Origin: Haliotis cracherodii
Lineage: Eukaryota
Length of the DNA: 64,000 bases
Assembly: GCF_022045235.1 (NCBI RefSeq)
Contig: NW_027266269.1
Location: 35,774,001-35,838,000 of the forward strand
Direction: 5' to 3'
The notes below the pieces were generated by a model that was given only the letters and a program-made list of their open reading frames with translations, made no database searches and had not been told where the DNA came from. Positions 14,496 to 64,000 of the stretch are shown piece after piece. The position numbers and the translations under genes were made by a program. Position 1 is the stretch's first letter, and each line of letters starts with the position of its first letter.

Positions 14496-14535
14496 ATGTC
14501 CAACAGAGACCAAGAAAAGGTGACTGTTGTCAAAG
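14496..14535 (+). CDS. SLC6 copy 1 coding exon 1 (MSNRDQEKVTVVK)
   Basis: Acceptor ttctacag ending 14473, ATG in caacATG context, donor AAG|gtatgt; phase 1 matches the next exon. Confidence 0.7.
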
Positions 14536-17500
14536 GTATGTGAACTAGAACTGAAGTCAATACCTTGTATCTGACCTCTGTCAAACTTGTTATATCGACA
14601 TCGACGGATGTCTACTGAAAGCAAAAGACAACTCATCCGAAGAGTACATTAAAGAGTAAAAAGAATTCAGTTCATTACTTTTATTCTTCTAAAATAATGA
14701 TCACATTTATTTTGCAAAACATGACCAAGCTCCTAAACATTTAGAAAACAAAAGCTGATCACGTACCCAAATCCTTTCCTGAAACTGAAATGGTTGCTCC
14801 CTCACAGTCTTGTGAATAATTAGTCACTCTGAATCTGTATGCATATCACTAAATTTTAATCATGGAACTGATGAGGCGGTTCCAATGGCCTCTTTAATTT
14901 CACGTTCAGTTGCCTAAGTCAGTGGAGTTAGTGAGTGAGTTGGGTTTAACGCCGCTTTTAACAGTATTCCAGTTATATCGCGGCGTGTCAGCTAAATGTG
15001 GGAGGAAAGCCCAAAGTGATGCAGGTCTAAGACGTTTACCACTTCGATGAAACCCACGAGCACGGGTATGGTGCTGACAAACCTAGAAACATAATCGGGG
15101 CGAACCGGGATTCGAACCCACAATCATAGGTTTCTGGCGTGCCCAAGGGACGCAACTCTGCACAGCAGATCGCGCCACCTTAGACGACTGGGCCACCCGT
15201 GCCCCCCTAAGTCAGTGGAAGGAAACGTGCTACTTGATAATTTTTGAAAGATATCAGTCATTCATATACCTGAAGCATGAATTGAACTTCGCATGTTTCC
15301 ATTTTGCCACTCCGATCAGACATTCCGATTCATATGCATAAAGAAACAGATTTAAACGAAACTCGCTGACACCACACGAGACAAAGAAGCAGGTGCTCTC
15401 TAAAGATGTGATGCATATAATGCTTGCAGACAAAAGAGAGACGTGGGGCCATCGAGTGGATGGCATCATCACCTTGTTGGGATACAGTGTAGGGGAGGGA
15501 ACTCTGCTCAAGTTCCCTTATCTCTGTGCAAGGAATGGCGGAGGTATGTATACAGGATCAACACGCATGCATGTGTCACAGGATGAATGACAACACCAAC
15601 AGGATATACACCTTAAATTTTGAAGTTGCAACCATGCATCCACAGAAAAGAAAGCAAGGCGTTCAATGCTTATTGGAGTCTTGTGACAGCTGTATTGTGT
15701 GACGAATATTTGTCATAAATATCTCAGCATTAAGCTGAAAGTAACATCCATTTTCATAATTTCCGAGATGAATATAAACAAGAAATATACAATCATGCTT
15801 TTGAAAGACGACATCTGTCCTATATCCTTATTCAAATTAATTTTCAAATCTCTTGTGGGTAAAATTGCAAGATGGAAAATTTTGAAATGAAACTTACCCG
15901 AATGAAACCTGCATATATACAGTAAACTACGTTTAAAACGAACTGACGGATGTAACGAACTAAAACCAGTGGTCCCTTTTAGTTCGTAATAACCGTCATT
16001 AACTGTATTCTGAATATTCTTGTTATCAAATGAGACATTTGGTGGCTTATAAGATAAAGCCTTCGCTCATCACTCCCAAGTTGGAGGTTCAATTCCCCAC
16101 TCACAGTAATCCTTAAAAGCGTGGGAAAGTCCTACTCACACACAGATGAATGTGGTCCTTTCCTCAGGAGCCTTCCTGATTCCCTACCTGGTGTTTGTGG
16201 GTCTCTGTTCTCTCCCGCTATACTTCCTGGAGGTCGTCATCGGGCAGTACTACCAGAGGGGTCCTGTTGAGGTGTGGAAATTTTGTCCAGCAATGAAAGG
16301 TATTTACATTTTGATGATTTTATATAAATATATTTCGAGTAAATTAAGATGCACTCAGTTTTATTTACCGGTAGTTTTCACTTTTTTTATGTTACTAATT
16401 TTTTTGTCTGCGAGAAGGAAGTAATAGGTGAACATCGTGAAGCGTTTTAGGTGGAAAAATGAGCATTTTGTGTTTGTGTATGTTGTTGTCGGAAGGGACT
16501 TGAGGTAGATGGCCTTAAGTAATAATTATATTACTTTTCTGTTTCGAAGTTTTGCATAACATATCCTCTAAACGTGTTACATTTTTTTACTTTTAAACGT
16601 AATGGGTGTGCACAGATCTTTGTGCAGCGTTAGGTACACTGAGATTTGAATGTAATGGGATTTGATTGACATGACATTTTGTGTTGGTGTTGTAGTCCAA
16701 TAAGGGTTTCATGTGTGTTCCAGGTATCAAAAATAAGCCATATGTAATTTTAATTCCAAAACAAATTGACAAATTTGGTCTCGCCTCTTGGGATCAACAA
16801 CTACACTTCACTGCACGGAAATGTAAAGCTTTTCAGTCAGTCTCACAATTGGTGTCACATCATATGCTGAATAAAGGTGATAAAAGTAAAACATGTACAG
16901 TCGGTACAAAAGTATTCTAATTTAATAGGGGCGGTCGGGTAGCCTAGTGGTTAAAGCGTTCGCTCGCCACGCCGAAGACCCGGGTTCGATTCCCGAAATG
17001 GGTACAAAGTGTGGAGCCAATTTCTGTGTTTTTCGCCGTGATATTGCTGGAATATTGCTAAAAGCAGTGTAAAACCTTACTCACTCTCTCACTCTAATTT
17101 AATAACGTATATTTTGTAAATACCATATACCAATTTTTGTATCTAAATTTCTGCCTTAATGATGATCACACTCTATGAAACACCGTGAAGATCAGGGGTA
17201 GCAAAGGACTTCAGCAACCCATTCTTGTCGTAAAAGGCGACTATGCTTGTAAGAGGCGACTGACGGGAACGGGTGGTCAGGCTTGCTGAATTTGTTGATG
17301 CATGTCATCGTATCTCAGTTGTGTAGATCGATGTTTAATCGATCAATACGTATTGCAAACCTATTCTGTCTCAACATCCCAGATGAAAATATATAGTCGA
17401 TCCGTCATCGATAATCTGTGTCATTCGATCAGGTCTGGGTTTTGGGTCGGCGTTGGTGTCGTGGGTGTACGCCATGTACACGTCCATGTACTTCTCCTGG

Positions 17501-19959
17501 TATCTCTACTACTTCTTCAACTCCTTCTTCAACCCCCTGCCCTGGTCCACCTGTGGCAACCCCTGGAACACGCCCAGCTGCGTGGAGTCGACGCTGTATG
17601 GGCACCAAGGGATGAACACCACAGTGAATGGCACGGTTCCACTGCAAGCTGCCATTAACACGACACGGTCGGGTCACCTGAATGGATCCACTGATGGCGT
17701 CAGTGTTGCGAGTGCCACTGAAGAATTCTGGAGGCAGGTTAACACAATAGTTAAGCCTTGGTGACATCCCGCACTGCACCAAACGCACTCTCTGATTTTA
17801 CAAACAATTTGCATATCTTTCGGCAAAAATACTCAACCAGTTATTTTTGAACTGGTTTTATGCAATATCGACTTAACCTTTAAGAAAACAAAACTGTTTC
17901 TAAGATACTATGATAGATTGCGTGGGTAAGGAAGAAATCAATTTTGGTCACATAGCAAATCTGGTTTATATATTATATTTTGCTATGTTTGGTTAAAAAT
18001 GATCCACTTATTCGCCTAGGTTGCTAATGTTGTATTCCAACTCTGAATCCCTACTGGCCTGTAACAACTGCAGTTAGCTGTTTTCCCCTGATCAAATACG
18101 TTTTGTTAATAATTATTGAACATATCTGTTACAGGTTTAATGCACTGAACATGTTGATATTGAACATATCTGTTACAGGTTTAATGCACTGGACATGTTG
18201 ATATTGAACATATCCGTTACAGGTTTAAGGCTCTGGACATGTTGATATTGAACATATCTTTTACAGATTTAATGCACTGAACATGTCGATATTGAACATA
18301 TCTGTTACAGATTTAATGCACTGGACATGTCGATATTGAACATATCTGTTACAGATTTAATGCACTGGACATGTCGATATTGAACATATCTGTTACAGAT
18401 TTAATGCACTGGACATGTCGATATTGAACATATCTGTTACAGATTTAATGCACTGGAAATCTCGAATGGTCTCGACGATGCAGGTTCCATACGGTGGCCA
18501 CTGTTTGGATGTCTGGCCTTGACCTATGTAGCCATGTATTTCATGCTGCTCAGAGGAATTCGAGTGACGGGGAAGGTACTTTTAAACAATTGATCGGAAA
18601 TACACCGTATTCATTTTCCATTTATTCTTAACCTTCATTGGCGTTTTTAAGGAAGTATATTTTTTCAATAAATAATTTACGTTAATTTGAATTCAGTTTA
18701 TTTGTTAATTGATCACTTTCCTTGAAATGGTTTGTCAGAAAACTAATGTTTCCAGGATTATGCTAATGACACCTGATGTAGTAAAAGGCTTTTCGCATGA
18801 TGAGTTAGAAAGTTGGGACATATCGAATCTAATAGTGATCAAGGGAACTACATGCAGAAATGTAGAAAGGAAAATTATGAAAGTCATTTGCCAAAACATA
18901 TGGCGATTGGTCATTTCAACATGCTGGCCCATTGCTATGCAACAATCTGCCACAAAATATCAGAGACACAGAAAATCTGACAATTTCAAAAAGACACTCG
19001 ACATATGTCTCTTCAAGAGAGCCTGTGACAAGATCAGTCATGGTCCAAAGGCATTTTAGCAGTATTTAATTGGAAAATGCGATATACAAATTCTTAATTG
19101 AATTTGATTAAAAAAAGCTATATTTCACTTTCAGATTGTGTACGTGACATTTATGTTACCCCTTATCCTGTGTACCGTCATACTCATCCGTGGGTCCCTG
19201 TTGCCAGGGGCACTAGACGGACTTCTGTACATGATCAAGCCGGACTTTGGAAAGCTGAAAAGCCCCACAGTAGGTTTAGAACTTTATTTTCAACAACGAT
19301 GTAATAAGTTACTAGTTTCAACTTTTTTTATATATGTGAGACGTTTTCAGTGTTCTTTGTTGTTGTTAGTGTTTTGTTTATCCACAAACTTAGCAATATT
19401 ACAGATATATCAGGACGTATGCATTGTGCTTCATCTTCTCCACAGATGTGGATCGAGGCCTGTGGTTACGCTCTTCATTCCATGGGGACCAGTAAGGGGA
19501 TTGCGAATACAGTGTCCAGTCACAACCAGCCGAACAGCAACTGCTACAGGTGAGTATTTAAATAGACCTGTGTGATTTTTGTTATATTTGACCAGCACTC
19601 GCAAGTAGTTGTCGACATCAGTGGAGAACCGCCTCAGGATTATGGAACTGCCTCAGGATTATGGAACCAAGATGGCGGCACATCCGTTTCCGGTCACGTT
19701 ACCTGCGCAGTGCATGATGGGTACCTGCGCGTGCCTCCAAGATAGCGTCACTTCCGTTTCCGGTGGCATGCGCCTCCAAGATGGCGGCGCTTCCGTTTCC
19801 GGTGGCGTGCGTATCCAAGAGGGCGGCACTTCAGTTTCCGGTGGCACACGCCTCCAAGAGGGGGTTGCCTCCGTTTCCGGGAGAAGGAGGGGGAAACCCG
19901 GAGAAGCGCCCGTAAAAGGTGAACGGGATCGACATTGAAAGAAGCGCGTCAAAAATCGT

Positions 19960-20001
<42 letters not shown>

Positions 20002-23000
20002 TAAACATAGACGGGGTGGCGGTGGTTAAGGGAGGGAGGGAGGGTGGTGGTGGTGGTGGTGGTGGTGAAGGGAGGGAGGGAGGGAGGGAGGGAGGGAGGG
20101 AGGGAGGAAAGGAGGAGGAGACGGGTTCATGGTTTGGTTTGGAGAGTTGTCAAAGCAAAGGAGGAAAGTTGTCTTTCAGGAGAGATGGGTGGCCCTGAAA
20201 AGGGCCGTTGGAAAACAAACTGGAAACAAGCTGGACAAGGGTTGTCTCCTTGATTACATTACTTTCCTTGATCTCGATACTAGATAATAATACGGACCAC
20301 CCCAACAGTCGGGTATGTCAATTCTGCGTTGAATAGTTTGTTGTAATGCTGACATAGCCTCAGACTTGTTCTTAAACCAGTGTGGGCTCTGCGATAGGAT
20401 CGTCTCCGATTCACCCCGTGGGTAACCCACTATTGTCCACGAATAGACTTTCATCCTCCGCTGGCATTGTTGACTGTTGGTCTGGCACGTCAGACAGTTG
20501 CATCGAGACGACATGGTTGATCTCTCCTTCAGTGCTCGACTGTGACGGTGTGCGTGGCTTCGCTCTTTTTATAGGAGAGGCACTGACACCCTGCTTCCTG
20601 ATTGGTCGAAAACGCATCGTGCTGATGGGTTCTTTCCGACAGTTGGTCTGAGCCCCTGGTTTTCTAAATCGGACCGACCGTTGTGTTTCTTTTTTTCATA
20701 AGAAATTGTATGGGTCATGGGAGAGATAGGAAGAAAAAAATAACAGATAAAAGAGAAAGGTCATGCTTGAAAGGATCAGTTGCCTGGTGTCAGTCAGCCA
20801 GAACACAGGATGGCATCACATGATGATGAAGAGGTCATGACCAGCCCTTTGACCCTACGGCATCCTTTTACGATGTTCATTGCGGGACCCACGGGATCAG
20901 GAAAAAGTTCCTTTGTGAAATCATGTATGGAGCAGATGCATCACCCCGAGGTGTTGGATACATCACCCCATCGCATCGTGTGGGTGTACAGCGAATGGCA
21001 ACCGCTTCATCATGAACTGGAAGAGATTGCAGACCACTTAGGGGTCGCTCTTGAGTTTGTCCACAGCATGAAACAAGCGGATCGTGCCTTGCCCGAAAAA
21101 GGGGTGGCCCCACGTTGGCTGGTCATCGATGATTTGCTGGGGGACAATACAAAAGAAGAAGAAACCGAAGTACTGCGATGGTTCACCAAGAAAAGTCATC
21201 ACCGAAACACATCTGTGCTATATCTCACTCAGAACTTGTTTGCTCAATCGCCGCAACATCGCACCATCAATCTGAATGCTCACTACATGGTCCTCTTTAA
21301 AAATCCGAGAGATGCATCGCAGATCGACAGTCTGGCTCGCCAGGTGTTTCCAGGCAAAGTTCCTTTTCTGCGTGAAGCCTATGAAGACGCTACCCGAGAG
21401 CCTTACACTTACCTGTTCTTGGACTTGAAGCCCACCACGTTGCAAGACCATCGCGTACGCGCCCGCCTGTTTTCGAGATCCGAATTACCCCTCGTGTATG
21501 TGCTGATCCTATGAGATGAAGAGACTTTCATAAAAGGAGGTGAACCCTCAGACCTTCCTTCAGTTGACCTACTTCCATCATGGGGCAGAGACGGAAACAG
21601 GTTCATCCTACAAAGGGAAAGAACAAAGACAAAGAGATGGTGAATGATGTCTATGACAGTATGGTCTCCCCCTCATCGCTACAGGGACTTGTGACCTCTG
21701 TATTTCACAAATATGTGCGGCAGCAGGACACCCCACAAAGGAAGAAAAAAGACAAGAGACAGTCTATTTTTCCGACAAGGGATGCGACAACCCTTGCCGT
21801 CAAAGGAAGAAATCGTCTTTTGCAGTGGTTTGCGATTGTCGTGCGGAACCTGAGAGCAGGACACATCCCATTGAAAGCTCAACATAAGACGTGGTTGCAG
21901 AGACATAATGATACCCTGACTAAAATTGTCAATCCACGTCTGCCTATGGATGAACGTCTTGACTACCTGATGCAACGCAGTGGTAGTGGAACACTTGCAG
22001 GGGTCTTGACACGCATTCTGTTGCAATGGCAAAATTATCTTCAAGCACCACTCCTCAAACAGGGTAACACCAGACGCCACCGACCTACAACAAAAACAAC
22101 GATGACTACTAAGCCAAAAGTAAAGGCTCATGAAAATGTCATGAAAGCATATCAAGCTGATGCTCTCAGACGATTGGTGCACATGCGGACCCAAAGAAAG
22201 TCCAAGAAGTCAGATCAACAGTTGCAACTCCCTCCTGCCACTGCCTGATAAAAGAGAGAAGCTGCAGATAGGTGACTCATTCAGGCTAACACCTCCATGC
22301 AAGAAAGATGTCTCAGTGCCTCAGGAAACAGAAACACGCTCTGTGTCATTTGTGTGCTGCCGCTCCAGCGATGCGCAAAGCCATTCTCAAACATGCTCCT
22401 ACTGATCTCATCCGTGCCCTTTGTGAATGTGTGGTGAACTTGTATGCAGGCAATATTCCCATGACCACGACGCAACGTCAAAACTTGCAACGACACGGTA
22501 AAGTCTTGAATACGCTCATGAAAAAACAAGTACCTCTAAGCAAGAAACGTAAACTTCTTCAACATGGAGGAGGATTATTAGGAGGACTCATACCTCTTAT
22601 TGGTTCTGCCCTAGCCTCTTTGTTTGGAGGAAAGTAATAAATGGTCTGACACCAGGAAGGTTGGGATCAGTGTGTGGTGTGCCACCATGAAGTACGCACG
22701 CAAGATGGTGTTGGTGTCTGAAGACACATGGCAAAGTCTACAAGCCACCAAACAACGTCATCGTCAGACACTTCATACCCCTCTCTTGGAAAAGAAACGT
22801 CTCCAAAATTTGGAAGAGATGGACGCGTTGATGCAGAGGTCACAGCAGCCTTTTCACATGCGGGAACAAGAATACAACCAACTGTTGCAACACATGCTAG
22901 AGTTGCAGCGCCAACAGCACAACAACAACCACAACCACAACAGCAACACCATCAAACCACTACAACCCAAAGTGACACCACCACTACCACCGTCATCACC

Positions 23001-26000
23001 ATCAACAATGGACACCACAGGTAGACCTGCCCCTCCTCAACAAGTGATAGACGAAGTGGTCATGAGTGTTCCTAAAGCCATGTCCAGTAAAGCCATGAAT
23101 TTGATGACAAGGATTCAAAACAATCCCGACTTGAGTTGGGCTCCAGAGGGAACCCTGACCGTGGAAGGGAAACCTGTCCCTGGCACACACATGGTGGACT
23201 TGATCAACGATTTAGTGCGTCACCGGAAAACCAAAGAGGGACCTGCAGGTTGGACCATTTTGAGTCACCATTTGGCCAACAGTCATGTCCCTCATGAAAT
23301 AATTGGAAATCCTCAACGATGGCAATGGATGCAGAAGCAGCAGCAGCAGCAACACCATCCTCATGCCACACCAGAAACACCCATAACCCAGTTCTCCCTC
23401 CCCACGTTCTCCCCGCAAAGTCACAAAGAGAGAAGAAGAAGAAGAAGGAGGCGGCAGCTGGATCCACAAGCGGAAGAAGAAGAAGAAGAAGAAGAAGAAG
23501 AAGAAGAAGAAGAAGAAGATGAGATGCCACCCCCACCTCCTTCGTGGCAAGTGGATCCAACAGTGGAGGAAGAAAAAGATGTGATGTCAATCCCATGGTT
23601 GATGACTCCACCTCCATCTGATACCAAACAGGACAGAGTCATCAACAGGCGAGGTTCATGGATACCCTTTAGCACCACCTAAGAAAAAAAAAAAAATCTC
23701 TCCCCTTCTCTATAAAAAGGCCATTCATGTAGGAAGTGGCATCAGTCTGAGAGAAATGAAGCGACAGACCAAGACGCGACAGAGCATTCTTCCCTCTGCT
23801 GCTGCTGCAGGGAAACAAAACAAAGGATTTCCTACTTCCCTTTGGACGGCCTGGTTGGAAAAAACCTACTTTCATCCTGAACATCCTGCAAGTTTTGGAG
23901 GCTGGCGACCTTTGTGGAAAGCAGCACGCATCCACGCTCAAGATGCAAGAACCAGTAAAAGCAAGAAGAAAACCAAGCCATCGCAAAGTCAAATCAAGCG
24001 TTGGTTGCAAACCAAAAGTACCTACACCTTGCACAAACCAGCCAGACGCTCCTTTCCCAGAGACCACTATCGTGTGGGAGGGGTCGATGAACTGTGGCAA
24101 GCAGACTTGAGTGACATGATTGCCTTTCAAGACGACAACGAAGGATTCAAATATCTGCTGTGCGTGATCGATGTGTTTTCAAAGATGGCATGGGTGCAAC
24201 CCCTGAAGGCCAAGAGCAGTTCTGCTTTGACAGAGGGTTTTCAAACCTTGCTGATGCAACAAGCCAAAGATCGACTCCCTCCTCAATTGCAAACAGACAA
24301 AGGCAGAGAATTTGTCAACCGTCCTTTCCAGGCTCTCATGACGAAACATGGCATTCATTTCTACACCAGTCAAAATCCTGAAACGAAAGCAGCCGTGGTG
24401 GAACGGTTTCAAAGGACTCTGAAAAATAAAATGTGGCGATACTTTACACAGCATGGGACCAGACACTATTTGAAAGTCTTACCCCAGTTGATCAAGTCGT
24501 ACAACCGTCGTGTGCATCGGACCATTGGCCAGCGACCTGTGGACGTCCTCCCAGGAGATCCCCTGTCAGAAATTTGGGTGTTAGACTACATGGAGGAAAA
24601 ACAACAACAACGGCTTCAGCGCAAAAAGAAAATAACAGCTCAAAGACTGTCGTCCCCCAAGACAAGATCCCCCTCTCTTTTACTGCCGGGCACCCGTGTA
24701 CGTCTGAACAAAACCAAAGGCACCTTTGAGAAAGGTTATCTCCCCAATTGGACCACCGAACTGTTTACGGTGGACCGGTTGGTGACAGGGAGAATACCAC
24801 CTGTGTATCGGATCAAAGATGATCATGGTGAAGTCCTCCAAGGAACTTTTTACCCTGAAGAATTACAACCCATCTTGAAAACAGACGATGTGTATGCCGT
24901 GGATCGCATGCTAAAAAGACGTCCAGGACCAAAACAGGGTCAAGAAGAGGTCTTGGTGAAATGGACTGGTTACCCTGCCAGTTTTAATTCGTGGATCCCT
25001 GCAGATCATTTACAGATAAAATAAGGAGCATGCTGTCTCTCAGACTCATTCAGAGGGTGGACACACGCGATGACAGAACCGCCACCACCACCACCACCGT
25101 CATCACCTCTGCAGAGAAGCCTCTCAGCATCCGTGGGTACCGATGAACCACCCCTTGCTGCTGCACCTCGTCATCAACAGCGCCGACACTCACCTTGGTG
25201 TTGTTTGGGCATGACGTTACCCCGTAGTGAAGTCGTGTTTTTTGCTCAGATCATTGTGATATATGGCGTGATCATCATGAGCATGGTACAGTTGGCCTTG
25301 GATCACGGAGAGAAACAGTTGTGGACAGCCCTGCTTTCCAGTTGTTTGGGATACATACTTGCACCACCCACCTTGGCCGCCTCACCAGGCATACCCACGA
25401 CGACCCCGTCCACCAGAAGACTTCAACTTGATACCTCATCCACCCAGAGTTTTCTACCCTAACTCACGTCATCATGGCTGTCACCTTTTTTTCGAAACAA
25501 GACTTTTACATGACCCTGCCCAGTGATGCCTCCATGGACATCTATCCAAACAACACCGTCAATGCGTATGAAATAAAGTTGCCTTATCCTCTGCATCTGG
25601 ACCGTCAACAGTGGGAGGTGGGCGTCAGCGAAGTTCACTTTCCGATGACATGGTACAACGTCGCCCCACCCTTTGACTGGTTTGCGCTGAACCTCAAACT
25701 GAAAAAAGACACCCTTGTGTATGAAAGCGCGGGGAGCGCTATACCACAGCCACAGTATGGTGTCGTCCATTATGAAAGCAAGAAGATTCCTATCGAGAAA
25801 GGCGTCTATTCATCTGAAGATTTGGTGAAAACCCTCAACCGTTTGATTCAGGAACATATTACGGATGTCTTGAAAGAACAGCCCTCAGACAGCGTCCAAA
25901 GTGATGGAAGACGGTTTGTCATTGATGTCAAGTATCCCGCAGATAGTCTTCGATTTGACATGCTTGAAGATGGAAAGGTGTGATTGCAAGCCCCTCAAGA

Positions 26001-29000
26001 AGTAGCAATCAATCATCCTCTCATGGGAAATACTCGTGGACCACTCTATTCCACGGAAGTGATCATGCCAAGTCCACTCTCGAGAATGCTCGGATTTGTT
26101 CAACTACCGCTCCTCGGTGAGGAGGACTATAAAACCTACACAGAGACGGCCGTTCCCTTGACTGCCTCGGCCCATTGGCAAGTGGGGGCTACTCCCATCC
26201 CGGTGGCTATGTGGAAATCACAGGTGACACAAAAGCACATCGTCTGTCAGGATTTGATACTGTGTACATTTACACCAACCTGGTCGAAGATCAAATTGTG
26301 GGCAATACGATGGCTCCCTTGCTGATCTACGTGCCTGTGTCAAAGAAGATGATGCAAGAGAGTGTGGTGATTAAAAGCCCTCAGCACATTCACTACCTTG
26401 GGTTGCGTCATGGTTCCTTTGACGGTATTAAACTCTATATCATGGACGACACAGGGCGACCCGTGACATTTCAAATGGGGAAAGCCATCGTGACACTTCA
26501 CTTCAGACGCCGCTACTAACGCAGAAAACAACATGTTGGGACACGCAATGGCACACCAGATGAATCGAGGACAGTTTGGCCAGCGTGGGAGTGGTATCAA
26601 AGTATACAAAGGACGTTATCATCAACGTGGCAGTGGTCTTGGAGGTATCTTGAAGATGGCGTTGCCTTTCCTTAAATCTGCCGGAACATCGGTGCTCAAG
26701 ATGGGTAAAAAGATCCTGCCTGGGTTGGTGAGTGATGTGGTTGGAGGCAAACGCAAATGGTCAGAGAGTTTGAAACATCGCGGCACAGCAGCCCTGATGG
26801 ATGTCTTGGAGGAACGTGAGGAGCCGAGACCCCCTAAAAGCCGTAAAGTCGTCCCAACCACCACCACCACCACCACCACCCACCACCAGCGTAAAAGAAA
26901 AAGAAAAACGGTTTAAAGGTCAGTCCTCATCAGACTTTCAACCTGACCAGACGTCCTTCAAGGCAGAGAAAAGGGTGAAACATCCATCATCATGATGCGC
27001 CGAGATGCTTGCGAATGTTCAAAGGCCCAGTTGGATCTCTTTACTATACCCCCTGTGTCCACCTCTGTGCAAGAGGGTCAGTGGATTCGCTATTGTCCCT
27101 TTGCACCACCCTCTGTAGCAGGACCACTCCAGTTTAACATTTCCAATCCTGTGAACGCTTACATTGATTTGAAACAGTGCTACCTGAGAGTATGTCTACG
27201 AGTGACGAAAGATGATGGCACGGATACCGTTCTAGCGGATAACCCCGTATCGACAGTCAACAATGTGATGCATTCCCTGTTTCGCGAAGTGCGGCTGCAA
27301 GTAGGACACAATCAGTTGGAGATCACACCCTCCATGGGCACTTACCCTTACAGAGCCTACTTGGAAACCCTTCTGAGTTATGGTACAGGAGCCAAAACAT
27401 CTCACCTTCTATGTCCTTGATGGTTCACCGACGATGCTGGTAAAATGGACGTCTTCAATCCTGATGCAGATGCGAACACAAGAAACACAGGTGTCAGAAC
27501 GCGACGCGATCTTATCGTACCCACCAAAGAAGTGGAACTTACAGGCCGTCTACACTGTGACCTGTTTCTTCAAGACCGTTATCTGCTGGATGGTGTCCCT
27601 ATGAAACTGGAATTGCTACGAAGTCCCGATGAGTTCTTCTTCATGTGTGCTGCTGATGGTGCCTACAAACTAGCGCTGACCAAAGCCGAATTCTATGTCC
27701 GTCAGCTCAACATCGATCCTGCTGTCCGAGAAACACATGTGTCCAGTCTGAATGCTGGGGTGACTGCCAAGTATCCCCTTTCACGTGTGCATGTGACTGC
27801 CCATGACATCCCGAGAGGCGGTAGGGACTTTCACAAGGATCACCTCATCGGTGGCCAATTACCAAAACGCGTGGTCCTGGGACTGGTGAACAATAGTGCC
27901 TACGTAGGAATCAAAGAGAAGAATCCGTACAACTTCAAACACAATCATGTCACCATGATGAAGCTCAAAGTCAACGGCCAGGAAGTCCATGGCACGGAAA
28001 TGAAAAGCGACTTCAGCAACAACAGCGCCAATTTGAAACAAGTCTACATGAATCTGTTCCGAAATACGGGGCAGCTATGGCGACCTGAGACCTGCGAACT
28101 GACTCCCAAGGCCTTTACTCAAGGTTACACCTTGTGGGTGGTGGATCTCACCCCAGACCTTGGCGCTGATGAAAGCATCAACTACCCTCGACACACTGGC
28201 AAGCTGGCTTTGGAAATCCAGTTTGGCCAAGCTCTCGAGGACCCAGCCACCCTCATCTGCTATGAGGAATACGAAAATGTTCTGGAAATAGATCGTTTCC
28301 GGAATGCGATGATGGTATAAAAAGAGCAGCGACAGACGGTCATGCCACACTTTTTCTCCTCCTACAAGGAACCATGGATGAACCACTCGGGTTGAGCACC
28401 TTGGATTTAGAAGCCCTCGTGGCTGATGACGAACCACTTCATGCCATCTACCGGGGCACCCTGGCCAGAGATGACTTTGCCAGACTGGGATGGCAACAGG
28501 ATGACCCCTTTTACCCCAAAGCCTACGTGATCAACACGGATTTAAGCGATCAACCTGGCACACACTGGGTGAGCATCTATCGTCCAGCTCCTGGATCCGT
28601 GGAAATGATGGATAGCTATGGACTGTATTCATTACCCCTGTTTAAAGAGACTTTGAATCGCATGGGTCAGATTCAACAACGATGGAATACACGCCCCTAA
28701 CAACATGGATACAGCACGTTGTGTGGGGTGTACTGTCTCTACATGCTGACCTATCCCGTGCGTGGGTGGACTTTTAATCAAGTGTTAGATACGTTGGACT
28801 GGAAGGACACCAGCAAGAATGATGCCACGGTATTAGCATGGTTTCATACCAAAGTGTCTACCTCCGTTCCTGTGGATGAGATGCCTGCCTTTCGACTGAG
28901 TGCCCAGACGCGTACCCTACATCAAAAGAATCAACCTTTCTGCCCTTATTGAACTGACACTTGTTCACTGAACCTACGATCACCTGACTGTCAACATTCC

Positions 29001-29907
29001 TGATTGAGGAGTGTACATACGTTCACTGCGTTTTAGGAATGTACATACGTTCACTATCAAAGTGGCAAAAGTTCTTTTTTTTCAAACTGTACATACGTTC
29101 ACATACGTTCACATACGTGTACATACGTTCATGTTCACAAAAGTCACAGGGACGCCCCTAATCCTGTGACTTTTGTTTTGTTGTGTTGGTTCATATGAGC
29201 GGGGGATTAAAAAAAGTTGAACCCATAGTCGTGTTGTGTGGTCTGTAGGATGAAGAAAAACAAAACAGGATCGCCATCTCACCCAAAAGACAACTATCCT
29301 CCTTTGCTTTGACGACCCTCCAACCCACACCATGAACCCGTCTCCTCCCTCCCTCCCTCCCTCCCTCCCTTCACCACCACCACCCTCCCTCCCTCCCTTC
29401 ACCACCGCCACCCCGTCTATGTGTAGAACAACAACAACAACAACTACAAACGATTTTTGACGCGCTTCTTTCAATGTCGATCACGTTCACCTTTTACGGG
29501 CGCTTCTCCGGGTTTCCCCCTCCTTCTCTCGGAAACGGAGGCAACGCCCTCTTGGAGGCGTGCGCCACCGGAAACGGAAGTGCCGCCCTCTTGGATGCGC
29601 ACGCCACCGGAAACGGAAGCACCGCCATCTTGGAGGCGCACGCCACCGGAAACGGAAGTGACGCTATCTTGGAGGCACGCGCAGGTACCCATCATGCACT
29701 GCGCAGGTCACGTGACCGGAAACGGATGTGCCGCCATCTTGGTTCCATGATCCTGAGGCGGTTCCATAATCCTGAGGCGGTTCTCCACTGATGTAGACAA
29801 CTACTCTCGCAATATGTATATAAATATGTATATCGACGGTTTATCTGTACCAGTCTGCACCCCTACCCACACCTACCCCCCACCCCCACCCACAGACAAA
29901 GACACCC

Positions 29908-29959
<52 letters not shown>

Positions 29960-32900
29960 GGTCCTATTCTTAACCGGAGTCGACACGTGGTTGAGTTGGG
30001 GTGAGGGGTGTGTATTGGCAAAGCGGGGTAAAACAACAAAGAAACACATTCCATTATAGTGTTAGTTTATTTATGTATTCATATATTTATATATAATATT
30101 TTTAAAATGTCTTTATTTGATATTTTAAGCTGTTGACTACATATCCAGGTGAGCTACAGTGCCGTTACTACCGTGGGAAAAGAAGCAGTATGACAAAAGA
30201 GCAGATTCATGTCACAGTATACCGACATCTTTTTACCAGAGTGGCTCTGATCGCTTGCATCGTGGACCCACTGATCACCATCTTCTGTGGACTGTCTATC
30301 TTCACGGTGTTGGGGCACATGGCTTACGTGACCGGGGTCGACATGGACGACTTCCAGTCATCAGGTTTGTTTCTGTTAATTATGTAGCATTTTGTTTTTT
30401 TGTTTTTTTGTTTATCGCCGCACTCTGTAATATTCCATCCATGTGACGTCGGTCGGTAAATAATGAAATCTGGACAAGACAATCCAGTGATTGATATTGA
30501 TGAACATCGATCAGTGCAATTCGATTACGATGACATGCATGAATCATGTCAGCGAGTCTGACCACCCGATTCCGTTATTCGCCTCTTACAACAAGCATAG
30601 TCACCTTTAACGGCAAGCTGGGTTGCTGAAGACCTATTCTATCCCCGGAATGTTCACGCGTCTCTACGCATAAGGCATTACGGACACATGGAAACATTTT
30701 TTCAAATTAAGTAAAAGGTATTCTGTACGCATCACGGACTACGGTTGTTGAAGATCAATACTAACCCAGATGTTCACGAGACAGCACTTAAACCTGTTTA
30801 CATTGTGTGTTGAATTTCAGTGTAGGAGGATTGTAATATGATAATACAACCAACTCATTCTCTCTCAACTCGTTTTTAGGTCTTAATCTGGCATTCTCAG
30901 TGTTACCGGAAGCAGTGACTTATCTCCCTTTGCCCCAGTTGTGGTCGGTGCTGGTCTTTGTGATGATGATGACGTTGGGCCTTGATACAACGGTAAAAAG
31001 AACTATTATAGAATATATTGTCTTGGCCCTGATCCATACGGATATACCTTGATACAGAAATATATAAATATAAGATCGTTTTCAAGAAAACAGATTACAA
31101 ACAAAACAATTCAATTTACTGAGTGAGTGAGTTAAAATGTAACGTCACATCGGGAATATTTCGGCCATTTTGTGACGAGGCAAAGTTATACAGTAATAAC
31201 ATATAGAGTTAGATTTACTAAATCCTGTCATCGAAGGACAGTAAAAATAACTAGATTATCGAAGATGTTATTTGGAACTAGTTTGAGACCATGTAAAAGT
31301 ATAAGATATCATTTAACAGCACAATACAGAAATGGGCTATAGATCGCCAGTAACCAAACTGCGCAACCATACTCTGGACGGTGGGACTTCTGCTTCCTGC
31401 ACCGTGCCTTAGCATGATTTATACCATCACTCCAGCTGTTGGCGATTGCACGCAATGTTAGTCATCAATCTAAAATGCGACTTAAAACGGTGGTAAACAT
31501 AAATATTCTTTGAATGACTTGGGCTTAGGAGAAATGAATCTAAAATGGAAGTAAATGATTAATGATAAATTATTTATCTGCTGGCAGGGAACAGGGAACA
31601 GGGAACAATCTATATAGCTATATATTTGTTGCGTATTTACAGTTATGAAATGGTCAATTGTCGAGGTTCTTGTTGTTTCACAGATGCCGAGTTTGGAGAT
31701 ACTGTCGGAGACACTTTCTGACCAGTTCCCTAAGCTGACCAGACACCGGTGGCTGCTTCTTCTTCTCGTCTTTATTCCCTCTTTCCTTCTGACTCTCCCG
31801 TACACTACACAGGTATTCCTTTTCACTAGTCCCTTATAATAAGGCTATGATCATGCGCATAATGTGTATGAGCTATTTTTAGCTCAACCCATTAAGGGAG
31901 ATCACCCACATGACTTGATATCTTCAGCAGCAAACTTGTAAAGCCAATTTGATCATACTTACAGCGATGATTTCGATACTTATGAAATTTATTGCCACAA
32001 TGGTTCGGATAATCTATGCATTTTTAAAGTTCTTTAAGAAGTCGGTCTTTTTCATAAACCGTGAATATTGTTTACATAACATGCGACTAGCGTAGTTGAC
32101 ATTTCTTTAAAAAATATGTTATATATTTATCTATCCAATGTGTTTATATTCCTATTTACCTTACTGTTGTCGCTTTGTGGCTGATAAAACGGAGCATCAA
32201 ATTTGGACTCGCTCGCCCACTTATAAACCAGTCCCTGTTAAATACATATGTGTATGAATGGTGTATACTCTCATCACCACGAATCTTGAAGGGTTACCCA
32301 CATTACATAGTATCTTGTGCAACAAAGTCGTACGGGAAACTTGTATAATCTTTTACCAACGTTGGTTTTCGTTGGTGCATTGTTACATAATAACCAATTA
32401 CGTTTAATTAATTAAATAAAAGTGACAAAACCTCTCTACAATGCTAAGAAGACGAGTCTGTTGTACAATTCCGACATATAATAAGCTATTCTTAATCCCT
32501 ATCAAATAGTGATGACACCAGGTGAGCGTATTCTGTCCAACTGGTGGCGCCCGCCGCACACGCATGCAAAGTCACTTCAAGTCTTCACACGGGAACTGCA
32601 TCGGACATTTTGGTCACAGATGCGTCAGATTTCGAAACGTTCTCCAAATGTCTGAATGAAACCTTTTAAAAGCTTTACCAAGGCTTTGACTTGTAACCCC
32701 GATCAAACGTTTGTAACTGAATCTCTTATTCAGCTGAAATATATCTTGCATGTACACATGCATACCTTTATCTTCATCGTTCTCCATTGGTATCGTGTAT
32801 ACGTTCTCCTCGCAGGGTGGTATCTACCTCTTGACCCTCGTAGACTGGTACTCTGCTGTCCCTCCCGTGATGTTGTTTGGGGTGGTGGAGTGTCTGGTAC

Positions 32901-35900
32901 TGGCCTGGGTGGTTGGTAAGACCTTCTTGAAACCAATCACTACTTTTTCCAGAAATGATAGATGAAACGAGTTTCGTAAAATTCATATTTCAAAACATAT
33001 TTCAAAACTTCAAGAATGTCATTAAAGGAAGCAATGGTGCAATACCGATAGGCTGGCAGACCTAAAGTAACACGTGACCAAAATATGTTACAGAGGACAT
33101 CAGCGGCATAACTACTGTATGTTTATTAAAACAACGTCTGCCAAAAGAAACAAAAATCTAATGACAACACCTGTCACCCGGCGCACTCGTTTAATCCATG
33201 TGCCTATTGTCTTGTCTATAACATTGTCTAGATCTTCGTTACAGGTGTGATCAGACTTGACATGTGCACAGTGGAGATGTATGGTAAAACTATTCCCAGA
33301 TGGTTGACGTTCCTTATAAAGTACATCACTCCTGGCCTGCTGATGGTGAGGCGTTACAACTATTTCCTTCTTGACCGACTGTCATGACTTTCCTATAATA
33401 ACCCACATTAGAGATTCCTGATTGTGAATGGTCAGTTGAAGCTATATGACGTCACGTTCCCCCATTACGATCAGTGTCTATGATGTCACAAAGTAAAACA
33501 CATTACATCATCAGATTACTTGCCTGACAACAATGGCGTTCCACGTTCAAGTATCCACTCCCATCTTGGTGCTTCTTAGTGCTGACTGGTCAGTAGAAAT
33601 ATGACGTCGCCTGGACCCATTACGATTTTGTTACACAATTACTGTTCTTGACGTCACAAGTGAAAACATTATGCCATCAGAACAGTAGGTTGACAACAAT
33701 ATGGGAGTGCAAATGTAACGTCGCGACAGCTATATCTCAGCCATATCGCGACTATATGTCTTCATTGAATTGACATTGTAGAGTTAACATATGTACGCTT
33801 TTTTCTTTCTTATTCCATATAGAGATTTCAAGCCTGTTGTAAGTTCTTACATCAGAGATCTAAAGCAAACAAAAAGGACACCCAAAAAGATATTACAATT
33901 CCTAAAATTAGTGAGTGAGTGAGTATGAATTTACGCCGCTTTTAGCAATATTTCAGCAATATCACGGCGGGGGACACCAGAAATGGGCTTCACACATCGA
34001 CCCCAAATCGACCCTCAAATTAAACCAACTATTGGTTTCACCTACTTAGGTTTTACGTCCAAATTTGAGAAGCCCATTCTACGATTGGCCATTCTCGTAA
34101 TCCACATGACTAATTGCTGAAAGGTGAGGATCATCCCTGTATATCCCTTGTGATGACACAAGACATGCATTATATACTCGACTGTGTTGTGTTTTACAAG
34201 ACAGGAGCTAAATATGTCAACGCAACCTCACTTACGGATCTTTTAACCGCTGCAAACATTCATGCAAATACATGATATTTCAAAGCAATTTGAATGAGAG
34301 TGTAAATTGCTGTCCCCTCGTAGGGTATTGTCCACTGAGAGATCATGCATATTCCACGTGTTTTCAGTTATGTTTGTACTTACCTAGTAAGCCTAGTGTA
34401 TTGGTCTGTCGTTACCCTGTCTGGCGCTCTGCATTAAGGGGCTAAAACAAGGACTGGTCGGCTCGGAGACAGTATACTGTGTCTGATTGGGGTATTCATG
34501 TTAAACTGCGGCATGGTATCTCAGTTGGCTAGCACTATAAATCGGCATCAGTACGGACAAGTACAAGCAGCCACACAAACACACATACGTACATGCACGT
34601 CGTTATAAAAGTGCAATAATCTTGGACGCGACGTTAAACCCCATTTCACCTCACCTCACCTGGTGCATTTGTCCGTTTTAATCTATGGTCATTCACGCCG
34701 CTTTTAGCAATATTTCAGCAATATCACGGCGGGGGACACCAGAAATGGGCTTCACACATCGAACCCATGTCGGTCCTAAAATTAAACCAACTATTGGTTT
34801 CACCTACTTAGGTTTTCAGTCCAGATTTGAGAAGCCCATTCTACGATTGGCCATTCTCGTAATCCACGTGACTAATTGTTGAAAGGAGGTGAGGATCATC
34901 AATGTCTATCCCTTGTAATGACACAAGACATGCATTTTGTACTTTACTGTGTTGTGTTTTACAAGACAGGGGCTAAATATGTCAACGCAACATCACTTAT
35001 AGATCTTTTAACCGCTGCAAACATTCATTTATTGTATCATCATGTAATAGATGTATATATATTGCTCGTCTACAAGTTAATGTAGAGAATAACTTTTGCG
35101 AGGAACTACAACCTTCACGAACGACAATCTCTGAATCATTTAGCTCGTTCGCGAAATATCCCATCTTGTTCGGCATTTATTGAAGTTTATGTGATGGGCT
35201 GTGCTTGTGAGAATAGTATAAAGGACTTATTAAAAAATCGTTTCCAGACTATACTAGTATACGCCTTCTACGTGTACCGTCCTCCAAAATATGGTGACTA
35301 CTTCTATCCTGAATGGGCAACTGTGATTGGCTGGCTTATATCTGTAGCCTTAGTTCTACCGACCCCAGGTTGGATGGTCTACTCTGTTTGGAAGTCAGAT
35401 GGGACATCAGTCAAGCAGGTAACATTTTCAAGTTATCGGAGAAAAAACCCATTTCATTTGCGATAAAACAACAACCCAAAGTTGGCCAAAAGAGAAAGAG
35501 GGGCAACAAACTTACTCTTTTATGTTTTCCATGACATAAAGTGCTGAAAGGATCTGTTCTATATTTCGACTATTTCGACTATATGTCCGGCTGTATACTA
35601 TAAAAAAAGAATACCTCGGGTTAGATTTGGTCTTCAGCAACCCATGTTTGTAGAAAGAGGCGACTAAGGGGATCGGGTGGTCAGGCTCGCTGACTTGGTT
35701 GATTCATGTCATCGTATCCCGATTGCGTGGATCGATGCTCATGTTGTCAATCACTGGATTGTCTGGTCCAGACTTGATTATTTACAGACCGCCGTCATAT
35801 AACTAGAATATTTTTGAGTGCGGCGTTAAACAACAAACTCACTGTGTTTTGTGTTTTGTATTTGGTATTTTGTGGCTGAATGCTGATTTTGCGATGTTCA

Positions 35901-37100: not shown

Positions 37101-37219
37101 ATATTGTAAATTTGATAACGCTCTAATTTTTACGACACGACGAAGCTTTAATATTGCTGATACAATGAAGCCGTAATATTGTAATTATGATAATGCTGTA
37201 ATTTTATACTAATTCAACC

Positions 37220-59400: not shown

Positions 59401-62400
59401 TTATCCTTTGGCTTTATCCTGCCGAGAAACCTACCCATTATATGATAAAAGAAGTTATTAGTCGTTTTAATGGAGACGTGGCAATCTCAACCATCAACCG
59501 ACTCAACAACCTTGAGAACAAGTACATCCATTCTTCCAACCACCTTACGTTCTTGATGCGATGCAGAGACAACAAACTCGTGCCTAAAGGCCTACAGCTA
59601 AGAAGCCCTGTCGACACACCAGCAGCACGCGCCATCCTCCAGAAAGCCTCGCAACACCTAGTCATAGAACGGATACGCCACCATCGCAAGACCAAGTCCT
59701 TCACCCTGGATGCTATCACTAAACATCAAAACTACCTCCAATCAGTCCTTACAGACCAAGCTCTTAATTGTAATAAAGAAGTTGTTCATCCATAAATTCT
59801 TATCCTTACTTAGTACTCCAACTTCTAAATGCCTATCAAAGAAGATATTTACTAATGTTTGTGAAACAATATATGTCTTCTAGAATAAAATATTTAATAA
59901 ATATACTTCTTACACCAATTGTATTATTTAACAATTATAAGAAATATTTTAACACATATCACGACATCATGAGCTTCGATCCACGCAATTGGGATATGAT
60001 GACATGCATCAACCAAATCAGCGAGTCTGACCACCCGATTCCGTTAGTCGCCTCTTACGACAAGCATGGGTTGCTGAAGACCTCTTCTACCCCGGATCCT
60101 CACGGGTCGCGTGCCACCGGTGGGGCGGGATATGCGCACCTTATCATGAACACCTAGAATCATTACAATTTGTTTTATATAGAATAAAAAAAAGTGCTTC
60201 AGATAGAATCGTACACTCGCCACTTCTTTTGGTTTAGATTTCCTATGACAATGGGAAGAGTTTTGCAGCTTTATTAATTTAGATATGGGCTTCGTGAGGA
60301 TTCCGGGTTAGAAGACGTCCACAATAAACAATGCGTGCCGTAAGAGGAGATTAGTGAGTGAGTGAGTGAGTTGGGTTTAACGCCACTTTTAACAGTATTC
60401 CAGTTATACCACGGCGTGTCAGCTTAATGTGGGAGGAAAGCCCGAAGTGATGCAGGTCTCAGACGTTTACCACTTCGTTGCAACCCACGGGTATGGTGCT
60501 GACAAAACCTAGGAACATAATCGGGGCGAACCGGGATTCGAACACACAATCATAGGTTTCTGGCGTGCCCAAGGGACGCAACACTGCACAGCGAATCGCG
60601 GTGCCTTAGACGACTGGGCCACCCGTGCCCCCAAGAGGGAATTAAATTATCGGGAACGTTGCTCAAAATATCAAACATTGACTTGTCTTGTCTAGAACCG
60701 ATTATTTTCCGGCCGCAGTCATATAGCTTGATCAGTGCTCACTCCGACGTGAAACTATAGATGTATCTGGAAAATAGTGTCCTTCTTCATATGACCATGA
60801 ATACAATTGTGAGATAATACATCTTGACAAATTATTCTACAGGCAAAACCCACAAGATTCCAACATGTCCAACAGAGACCAAGAAAAGGTGACTATTGTC
60901 AAAGGTATGTGAACTAGAACTGAAGTCAATACCTTGTATCTGACCTCTGTCAAACTTGTTATATCGACATCGACGGATGTCTACTGAAAGCAAAAGACAA
61001 CTCATCCGAAGAGTACATTAAAGAGTAAAAAGAATTCAGTTCATTACTTTTATTCTTCTAAAATAATGATCACATTTATTTTGCAAAACATGACCAAGCT
61101 CCTAAACATTTAGAAAACAAAAGCTGATCACGTACCCAAATCCTTTCCTGAAACTGAAATGGTTGCTCCCTCACAGTCTTGTGAATAATTAGTCACTCTG
61201 AATCTGTATGCATATCACTAAATTTTAATCATGGAACTGATGAGGCGGTTCCAATGGCCTCTTTAATTTCACGTTCAGTTGCCTAAGTCAGTGGAGTTAG
61301 TGAGTGAGTTGGGTTTAACGCCGCTTTTAACAGTATTCCAGTTATATCGCGGCGTGTCAGCTAAATGTGGGAGGAAAGCCCAAAGTGATGCAGGTCTAAG
61401 ACGTTTACCACTTCGATGAAACCCACGAGCACGGGTATGGTGCTGACAAACCTAGAAACATAATCGGGGCGAACCGGGATTCGAACCCACAATCATAGGT
61501 TTCTGGCGTGCCCAAGGGACGCAACTCTGCACAGCAGATCGCGCCGCCTTAAACGACTGGGCCACCCGTGCCCCCCTAAGTCAGTGGAAGGAAACGTGCT
61601 ACTTGATAATTTTTGAAAGATATCAGTCATTCATATACCTGAAGCATGAATTGAACTTCGCATGTTTCCATTTTGCCACTCCGATCAGACATTCCGATTC
61701 ATATGCATAAAGAAACAGATTTAAACGAAACTCGCTGACACCACACGAGACAAAGAAGCAGGTGCTCTCTAAAGATGTGATGCATATAATGCTTGCAGAC
61801 AAAAGAGAGACGTGGGGCCATCGAGTGGATGGCATCATCACCTTGTTGGGATACAGTGTAGGGGAGGGAACTCTGCTCAAGTTCCCTTATCTCTGTGCAA
61901 GGAATGGCGGAGGTATGTATACAGGATCAACACGCATGCATGTGTCACAGGATGAATGACAACACCAACAGGATATACACCTTAAATTTTGAAGTTGCAA
62001 CCATGCATCCACAGAAAAGAAAGCAAGGCGTTCAATGCTTATTGGAGTCTTGTGACAGCTGTATTGTGTGACGAATATTTGTCATAAATATCTCAGCATT
62101 AAGCTGAAAGTAACATCCATTTTCATAATTTCCGAGATGAATATAAACAAGAAATATACAATCATGCTTTTGAAAGACGACATCTGTACTATATCCTTAT
62201 TCAAATTAATTTTCAAATCTCTTGTGGGTAAAATTGCAAGATGGAAAATTTTGAAATGAAACTTGCATGTAGCCTACCCGTTTGAAACCTGCATATATAC
62301 AGTAAACTACGTTTAAAACGAACTGACGGATGTAACGAACTAAAACCAGTGGTCCCTTTTAGTTCGTAATAACCGTCATTAACTGTATTCTGAATATTCT

Positions 62401-64000
62401 TGTTATCAAATGAGACATTTGGTGGCTTATAAGATAAAGCCTTCGCTCATCACTCCCAAGTTGGAGGTTCAATTCCCCACTCACAGTAATCCTTAAAAGC
62501 GTGGGAAAGTCCTACTCACACACAGATGAATGTGGTCCTTTCCTCAGGAGCCTTCCTGATTCCCTACCTGGTGTTTGTGGGTCTCTGTTCTCTCCCGCTA
62601 TACTTCCTGGAGGTCGTCATCGGGCAGTACTACCAGAGGGGTCCTGTTGAGGTGTGGAAATTTTGTCCAGCAATGAAAGGTATTTACATTTTGATGATTT
62701 TATATAAATATATTTCGAGTAAATTAAGATGCACTCAGTTTTATTTACCGGTAGTTTTCACTTTTTTTATGTTACTAATTTTGTGGTCTGCGAGAAGGAA
62801 GTAATAGGTGAACATCGTGAAGCGTTTTAGGTGGAAAAATGAGCATTTTGTGTTTGTGTATGTTGTTGTCGGAAGGGACTTGAGGTAGATGGCCTTAAGT
62901 AATAATTATATTACTTTTCTGTTTCGAAGTTTTGCATAACATATCCTCTAAACGTGTTACATTTTTTTACTTTTAAACGTAATGGGTGTGCACAGATCTT
63001 TGTGCAGCGTTAGGTACACTGAGATTTGAATGTAATGGGATTTGATTGACATGACATTTTGTGTTGGTGTTGTAGTCCAATAAGGGTTTCATGTGTGTTC
63101 CAGGTATCAAAAATAAGCCATATGTAATTTTAATTCCAAAACAAATTGACAAATTTGGTCTCGCCTCTTGGGATCAACAACTACACTTCACTGCACGGAA
63201 ATGTAAAGCTTTTCAGTCAGTCTCACAATTGGTGTCACATCGTATGCTGAATGAAGGTGATAAAAGTAAAACATATACAGTCGGTACAAAAGTATTCTAA
63301 TTTAATAGGGGCGGTCGGGTAGCCTAGTGGTTAAAGCGTTCGCTCGCCACGCCGAAGACCCGGGTTCGATTCCCGAAATGGGTACAAAGTGTGGAGCCAA
63401 TTTCTGTGTTTTTCGCCGTGATATTGCTGGAATATTGCTAAAAGCAGTGTAAAACCTTACTCACTCTCTCACTCTAATTTAATAACGTATATTTTGTAAA
63501 TACCATATACCAATTTTTGCATCTAAATTTCTGCCTTAATGATGATCACACTCTATGAAACACCGTGAAGATCAGGGGTAGAAAAGGACTTCAGCAACCC
63601 ATGCTTGTCGTAAAAGGCGACTATGCTTGTAAGAGGCGACTGACGGGAACGGGTGGTCAGGCTTGCTGAATTTGTTGATGCATGTCATCGTATCTCAGTT
63701 GTGTAGATCGATGTTTAATCGATCAATACGTATTGCAAACCTATTCTGTCTCAACATCCCAGATGAAAATATATAGTCGATCCGTCATCGATAATCTGTG
63801 TCATTCGATCAGGTCTGGGTTTTGGGTCGGCGTTGGTGTCGTGGGTGTACGCCATGTACACGTCCATGTACTTCTCCTGGTATCTCTACTACTTCTTCAA
63901 CTCCTTCTTCAACCCCCTGCCCTGGTCCACCTGTGGCAACCCCTGGAACACGCCCAGCTGCGTGGAGTCGACGCTGTATGGGCACCAAGGGATGAACACC
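56445..64000 (+). repeat. Segmental duplicate of about 10007-17620
   Basis: Colinear SINEs, introns and exons; several indels in the first 2.3 kb, almost identical afterwards. Confidence 0.95.
60865..64000 (+). CDS. SLC6 copy 2 (partial; exons 60865-60904, 61799-61912, 62548-62679, 63813 to window end)
   Basis: Near-identical to copy 1 at offset 46369-46380; one visible V>I change in exon 1; runs off the window. Confidence 0.9.

Follow-up and report, generated by a model that had tools for sequence, protein, structure and literature searches.

The described transporters most similar to the gene studied here are GlyT2 (SLC6A5), GlyT1, PROT and ATB0,+, members of the SLC6 family with the same fold and about 36-38% identity, together with DAT, NET and SERT, which gave the best phmmer score (E 7e-120) and the best structural Z score (52). 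The gene lies in a 64,000-nucleotide stretch of Haliotis cracherodii DNA (contig NW_027266269.1, positions 35,774,001 to 35,838,000, forward strand), the whole of which is called the window. Sites are named in LeuT numbering, so that E25 denotes glutamate at the L25 position, which is residue E36 of the window gene itself. GlyT2, GlyT1, PROT and ATB0,+ share with the window gene a glycine at G24, the Na2 motif and the gate aspartates, but they keep L25, N27, R30, Y108, Q250, F253 and an aromatic residue at F259, where the window gene has E, T, K, T, Y, H and K. A protein carboxylate in the unwound part of transmembrane helix (TM) 1 is common to the window gene and the monoamine transporters, but the defining aspartate of DAT (D79) corresponds to G35, and the acid stands one residue later (E36). 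In the tree the window gene is far from the DATs; the automatic name of its orthologs is 'dopamine transporter-like'. The insect transporters KAAT1 and CAATCH1 belong to a different lineage, and their sequences were not in the tree. They have aspartate at the N286 position, as has the window gene, and passages in PMC8310414 propose this residue as the cause of their weak Cl- dependence and describe CAATCH1 as channel-like. As D286 occurs in 41 of 142 mollusc relatives outside the abalone clade described below, this match alone says little. Divergent orphan SLC6 proteins are known, and no account of the abalone clade was found in the open-access literature searched, in keeping with the earlier note on this DNA, which had raised the possibility of an undescribed SLC6 subfamily. 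Where passages in PMC8557453 and PMC11989308 mention abalone SLC6-labelled genes, they do not characterise them.

Our results indicate that the window gene is a real, conserved and new SLC6 variant within the abalone radiation, with automatic names that misfit its residues. Judged from these residues, there is about an even chance that this intact, conserved protein of SLC6 fold is a Na2-driven, likely Cl--independent carrier of a small polar or charged solute, and not of a neutral alpha-amino acid. Rather more tentatively, a radiation without the Na1/Cl-/L25 module, and within it a subgroup also without the Y108/F253 lid, might have given rise either to a carrier using Na2 alone, for a class of solute novel among animal SLC6s, or to a chemosensor or a conductance gated by ligand; a single K/T switch would then distinguish two ligand specificities.

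The spliced model of the gene has 14 exons and 1788 nt, and encodes 595 aa with 0 internal stops (Table 1). The earlier note had reported an intact frame at 15430-30364. Exons 2-8 were located there and the frame is open throughout, but the gene extends further, from 14496 to 36134. Intron 4 is of the GC-AG type and the other twelve are GT-AG. For intron 4, 16 donor/acceptor pairs were tried (2 donors x 8 repeat-borne acceptors), and solely the GC donor at 17733 with the acceptor at 18443 gave an open frame; the canonical GT donor at 17737 was rejected, as it led to stops with each of the 8 acceptors. The full-length named orthologs P0013 and P0016 have the same intron-4 splice position, and public models P0002, P0006, P0007, P0009 and P0010 end at this intron. 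The GC-AG intron with its eightfold acceptor repeat may be the reason for the frequent piecemeal annotation of the gene. Pfam SNF matched 8 of 8 exon pieces tested, 6 of them above the cutoff, and ortholog P0016 matched positions 1-522 of the 524 in the profile (E 2.5e-142). The closest H. cracherodii-labelled proteins are P0011 (94/94 residues identical) and P0283 (246/249).

The residue register was taken from a MAFFT alignment with 132 homologs, using a 620-aa DAT (P0123) as ruler, and was confirmed with HMMER by aligning directly to the sequences of GlyT2 and DAT structures (ortholog P0016 against human DAT). We assumed the mapping of LeuT to DAT numbers, with a partial cross-check against paper passages only (L25 = SERT L99, V104 = DAT V152). 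All nine substitutions listed in the earlier note were present in the alignment: E36 (L25), T38 (N27), K41 (R30), T112 (Y108), Y293 (Q250), H296 (F253), K302 (F259), H311 (Y268) and D329 (N286). Two further changes were seen, tyrosine at V104 (Y108 of the window gene) and valine at the DAT-D345 position (V321). The residues said to be retained, R16 (R5), D397/T398 (Na2), D412 (D369) and D452 (D404), are indeed kept, but LGLDT, D369 and D404 are encoded in exons 9-11, downstream of the range then considered. Outside the subgroup of the window gene, E25 occurs in 0/258 relatives, T108 in 0/262, K259 in 0/260 and H253 in 1/260, whereas K30 (33/258), T27 (13/258), Y250 (18/261), H268 (45/261) and D286 (82/261) are commoner. 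N286D was therefore rejected as a special feature.

The Na2 site is kept, with G31, V34, L394, D397 and T398 at the G20, V23, A351, T354 and S355 positions, and the Na1 side chains (N27, T/S254, N286) are not canonical (T38, S297, D329). At the Cl- site Y58 and S297 are retained, and the Q250, N286 and S290 positions are changed to Y293, D329 and T333; the joint loss of Q250 and gain of aspartate at N286 would fit the altered Cl- coupling that had been suggested. The outer gate R30-D404, the lid Y108/F253 and the gatekeeper L25 are replaced by K41-D452, T112/H296 and E36. Neither the aspartate at G24 that marks monoamine transporters nor the glycine-transporter mark (tryptophan at F259 with Y108 and N27) is present, the residues being G35, and K302, T112 and T38, respectively. 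The protein has 4 charged residues at 16 pocket positions, the highest number among 245 complete rows (128 rows have none), and its side-chain subsite is the most hydrophilic of the same rows (mean -2.2 against a median of +1.1).

To place the gene we used a FastTree tree of 177 sequences x 551 columns. Left out of it were 10 entries that were redundant or fused, all ids above P0200 and any sequence covering <380 columns of the model. The window gene is nested among SLC6 sequences, in a subgroup (support 1.0) within a clade of 35 sequences (support 0.999) whose named members are all Haliotis. The subgroup has a stem of 0.57 and short inner branches, which suggests a phase of rapid change after which little altered. 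Outside Haliotis, word-index searches and the best 150 of a 50%-cluster search yielded no ortholog of the subgroup, related snails being thinly sampled. The sister of the clade is a bivalve group (support 1.0; P0048-50, P0053 Ruditapes, P0055 Dreissena, P0148 Mya) with L25 replaced by V, N27 by D and N286 by D. Unlike the window gene it retains R30, Y108 and Q250; no functional data on it were found. Scallop and razor-clam SLC6s (P0190, P0167, P0180, P0197) have other divergent pockets, with Q250 replaced and N27 changed to D or E; the tree gives no support (0.17) for joining them to the abalone clade.

The other 30 Haliotis clade sequences (P0020-P0047, P0052, P0056, P0106, P0151) have varied pockets. 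L25, N27 and Q250 are kept in 0/30 of them, and K30 is found in 28/30, H268 in 27/30 and D286 in 25/30. The Na2 positions G20, L(A351) and D(T354) are invariant (30/30), and Y108 is kept in 23/30. The radiation has thus apparently discarded the Na1/Cl-/gatekeeper module and held Na2, while pockets vary among paralogs. E25, T108, H253 and K259 form an apparent second layer specific to the subgroup. The rewriting, which the earlier note had treated as a feature of one gene, therefore divides in two: these four residues are the subgroup's own, but the loss of L25, N27 and Q250, R30K and Y268H are common to the larger abalone radiation. The inner-gate residue R5 is replaced in 21/30 of the other clade members, by H in 14, and 12 members from H. 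asinina have the same longest-contig size, which suggests a gene cluster.

The subgroup consists of two paralogs, type A (the window gene) and type B (P0334, 594 aa; 462/589 residues identical, 78%). Over the core P0334 matches type A at 446/544 positions, with 38 fixed A/B differences elsewhere in the core, and 1 of 40 pocket, ion and gate positions differs, K to T at F259. Type B models of H. asinina, H. rubra and H. rufescens have T at 259 and retain E25, T108 and H253. Position 259 thus looks like a specificity switch. E25 does not depend on K259, as type B has E25 with T259; the pairing of E25 with K259 suggested earlier is weakened by the three species, and an obligatory salt bridge was rejected. 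Type B models without exon 6 (TM5) occur in two species (P0334/P0335, P0003), possibly as a conserved exon-skipping isoform.

Conservation of the pocket was examined in P0005 (98% identical to the window gene), P0013 (H. asinina, 597 aa) and P0016 (H. rubra, 597 aa). E25, T108, H253 and K259 were kept, and all 40 of the pocket, ion and gate positions were the same as in the window gene, including 19/19 of the non-canonical ones. Core identity was 478/543 for P0013 and 487/543 for P0016 (88-90%), and site identity exceeded it in one-sided Fisher tests with a background that includes loops (p 0.005 and 0.011, respectively). TMs were better conserved than loops (320/347 against 158/196), and the overall divergence (0.88) was similar to that of a canonical ortholog pair, P0104/P0109 (0.86; 40/40 sites). 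Small deviations occur in two fragmentary models from H. rubra, with D at 25 in P0002 and a difference beside 259 in P0015. It appears from these comparisons that the new pocket is under purifying selection. Because the orthologs are identical at 40/40 sites against 88-90% of the core, the rewritten residues are very unlikely to reflect decay.

AlphaFold2 (AF2) was applied to P0016, an 87%-identical stand-in ortholog, with 141 aligned sequences, and gave a predicted local distance difference test score (pLDDT) of 91 and a predicted TM-score (pTM) of 0.89. TM-scores against eukaryotic SLC6 structures were 0.82-0.86, the best Foldseek match being GlyT2 (9hue, 0.86), and the model superimposed on occluded NET with Z 52 and a root mean square deviation of 1.5 Å over 527 residues. 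The predicted structure is a LeuT fold with 12 TM helices, and supports both scaffold and register.

In the proposed carrier mechanism, Na+ at Na2 would hold the outward-open state. Passages in 10.1101/283176 report that the LeuT mutants N27S and N286S, unlike Na2 mutants, remain responsive to Na+ and substrate; residue lists for the two LeuT sites are given in part of PMC6590891. D329 would supply a fixed negative charge and Y293 would fill the former Cl- position, so that Cl- would not be needed. According to passages in PMC10137170 the R30 and Q250 equivalents of GAT1 interact, and these positions change together in the other clade members (28/30 K, 0/30 Q). With Y108 lost, the usual bridge from the substrate carboxylate to Na1 and TM3 could not form. 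E36 would instead provide a protein carboxylate for the cationic group of the substrate, and would fill the empty pocket on the return step. L25, termed completely conserved in part of PMC4894957, rotates into the empty LeuT site. Specificity would be set by position 302, where K (type A) would favour a substrate with an anionic group and T (type B) a neutral one; F259 is described as a volumetric sensor of substrate binding, with Trp there in the GlyTs, in passages of PMC9599917. Speculative candidates for the type A substrate are acidic amino acids and zwitterions resembling taurine, opines or betaines.

Several points weigh against this proposal. The Y108 hydroxyl of LeuT is required for substrate-driven conformational change (passages in 10.1101/283176), conservative SERT L99 mutants have 5-25% of Vmax left (passages in PMC4894957), and in GAT1 R69K is transport-dead and Q291S/N are without uptake (passages in PMC10137170). 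As several singly crippling changes co-occur in the window gene, coupled transport may be lost. The roles of E36, Y293 and K302 are ones that we infer from sequence. The AF2 input consisted of canonical relatives, from which the family fold is returned regardless. With a TM-only background (320/347) in place of one including loops, the probability of identity at 40/40 sites by chance rises to about 0.04. The A/B similarity could be inflated by gene conversion among the tandem paralogs, and the copy considered carries a 10.2-kb insertion in intron 7.

The main rival, because the lost residues are those that enforce coupling, is that ligand is bound but uncoupled from transport, the protein being an ion conductance, either uncoupled or gated by ligand, or a sensor that does not transport. 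We consider this unlikely, though it deserves serious attention. With both the thin lid (Y108/F253) and the Na+ gatekeeper (L25) lost, what remains is a polar pathway of E36, T38, T112, H296, K302 and D329, and the inner gate network is altered too (H311, V321). The need for Y108 in coupling and the loss of transport in GAT1 R69K, as given in the passages cited above, point the same way, as does the proposal that L25 blocks a Na+ leak. However, the gate pairs R16/D412 and K41/D452, Na2 and the return-path residue E404 are retained, Y108 persists in 23/30 of the other clade members despite the same Na1/Cl loss, and the pockets have diversified among paralogs, as expected of carriers with different substrates.

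That the protein is a conventional carrier taking up small neutral amino acids as nutrients, with mutually compensating substitutions and an unchanged substrate class, seems to us improbable. Such a carrier would account for G35 and G37 (the backbone carboxylate site), Y32, S297 and G299, which are still of amino-acid-transporter type, for the depositor-named AAT2 proteins (P0112) in the wider clade, and for GlyT2 as best Foldseek match, but not for E25, T108 and K259, found in 0 of about 260 relatives, or for the extreme hydrophilicity of the side-chain subsite (mean -2.2 against a median of +1.1 in 245 rows). That the odd residues are the decay of a tandem duplicate is very hard to credit: tandem copies exist, numerous public models of the subgroup are fragmentary and the window copy has both the 10.2-kb insertion and the repeat at the intron-4 acceptor, but the frame is open across 14 exons, full-length relatives of 594-597 aa in H. 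asinina and H. rubra have the same residues, TMs exceed loops in conservation with divergence as in P0104/P0109, and selective constraint is largely apparent already at the protein level. Even with a functional subgroup, the window copy itself could be silent.

Four runs of presumed RNA origin were compared with 14400-19600. Contigs of depth 3-6 were found inside exon 4 (X1, 17467-17689; X2, 17436-17600). A 283-nt contig of X4 fits 17482-17733 and stops precisely at the predicted donor, 37 of its letters lying beyond the fit. No exon-exon joint was found among the matches listed, where SINE-like (short interspersed nuclear element) repeats dominated. Introns were uncovered in X4, where bin arithmetic would fit 28 bases ending at the donor, some 25 in exon 5 and some 40 in exon 7; there was some intron cover in X1 and X2. 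These data hint that one or another copy of the gene is transcribed and spliced in an abalone. The few contig variants (codon rows: 4 synonymous, 3 non-synonymous, with one occurring twice) came from single contigs, nearly all of depth <5 and of mixed origin, and were not used. In H. asinina two type B isoforms are annotated, one containing exon 6 and one lacking it; such isoform models as a rule rest on RNA reads. SINE-like repeats at 14925-15206 and 16928-17333 were very abundant in the runs.

Statements on copy number and synteny are based on the window and on protein clusters. The second tandem gene copy (Table 1) is 99.1% identical to the first, with a single coding difference, V11I, in the part seen. 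P0011 and P0012 jointly hold five H. cracherodii accessions, which is consistent with a tandem array. A segmental duplication, 10006-17620 against 56446-64000 (offset about +46.4 kb, 92-99% identical), carries the 5' part of the second copy.

The insertion in intron 7 is a passenger and not part of the transporter. It begins 54 bp past exon 7, and without it the intron is 488 bp. Its terminal inverted repeats (TIRs) are about 585 bp long and 87% alike, and it is flanked by a 6-bp target duplication, which is typical for Polintons. It encodes an RVE integrase (rve E 1.5e-11) with a chromodomain and an A32-type ATPase (Pox_A32 E 2.6e-6); a Capsid_N match (E 0.018) was below the cutoff. Penton-like and protease-like genes, which had no Pfam match, are presumed from resemblance. 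The capsid-like gene is interrupted near 27420 and the protease-like gene near 28700, and the penton-like gene is in three pieces (25432-26519). The six frames of the element contained no open reading frame >472 aa and no polymerase motif, and the integrase had no relative in viral_contigs. Polintons/Mavericks likewise have, according to passages in PMC4405056, TIRs, an RVE integrase and a packaging ATPase, and a capsid gene to which the putative capsid-like gene may correspond; they are 15-20 kb, whereas this element is 10.2 kb, with no protein-primed polymerase found and its morphogenesis genes in pieces. From its sequence it reads as a decaying non-autonomous Polinton and is filed as Polinton-like only. 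The insertion may impair the window gene copy. As a polymerase-less element retaining morphogenesis genes it is possibly of separate interest.

Elsewhere in the window there is a decayed LINE-like (long interspersed nuclear element) sequence at 37489-40619 (-), with endonuclease (E 8.5e-14) and reverse transcriptase (E 5.5e-5) matches, and there are Tc1/mariner transposase fragments at 52094-52810 (-; DDE_3, HTH_Tnp_Tc3_2). Long tandem arrays occupy 46132-47675 (5-bp x 309), 7468-8510 (79-bp x 13) and 36420-37107 (24-bp x 29). The open frames at 12989-13426 / 59358-59795 (+, 145 aa) and 50782-51048 (-, 88 aa) had no Pfam match; we take the former to resemble a mobile-element fragment, and the latter might be an exon of some other gene.

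Table 1. Positions in the window of the exons of the SLC6 gene, the sequences inserted in its introns and the second copy
Feature	Position	Strand	Remarks
Exon 1	14496..14535	+	Start codon, aa 1-13; agrees with N-terminus of P0005/P0009
Exon 2	15430..15543	+	TM1: R16, E36 (codon at 15495), T38 (15501), K41 (15510)
Exon 3	16168..16299	+	TM2; Cl- site tyrosine Y58 retained
Exon 4	17433..17733	+	TM3 and extracellular loop 2 (EL2): Y108 (V104 position), T112 (codon at 17480); GC donor next
44-bp x 8 tandem repeat	18114..18465	+	Multiplies intron-4 acceptor; open frame from last copy only
Exon 5	18443..18575	+	TM4
Exon 6	19135..19269	+	TM5
Exon 7	19446..19549	+	TM6: Y293 (19467), H296 (19476), K302 (19494), H311 (19521)
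Polinton/Maverick-like insertion	19604..29805	+	10,202 bp in intron 7
Exon 8	30240..30364	+	TM7: V321, D329, T333
Exon 9	30880..30992	+	TM8: Na2 motif L394-G-L-D397-T398
Exon 10	31684..31812	+	S402, E404, D412; TM9
Exon 11	32816..32915	+	TM10 (D452)
Exon 12	33245..33345	+	TM11
Exon 13	35248..35418	+	TM12
Exon 14	36045..36134	+	Includes stop codon
Second tandem gene copy	60865..64000	+	Covers exons 1-3 and exon 4 in part, continuing past the window end; about 46.4 kb downstream

Papers on the mechanism of neurotransmitter:sodium symporters treat L25, Y108 and the bridge between Na1 and the substrate carboxylate as family-wide requirements for coupling. Here they have been lost jointly, and the new pocket was then fixed across abalones. 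The automatic names dopamine, glycine and creatine transporter-like are misleading for work on abalone transcriptomes. The A/B pair, identical at 39 of 40 sites, offers a direct test of specificity at a single residue. If the protein transports, it would be a ready test of the minimal coupling machinery, and of whether Na2 is enough; if it does not, it would be a rare channel or sensor derived from SLC6.

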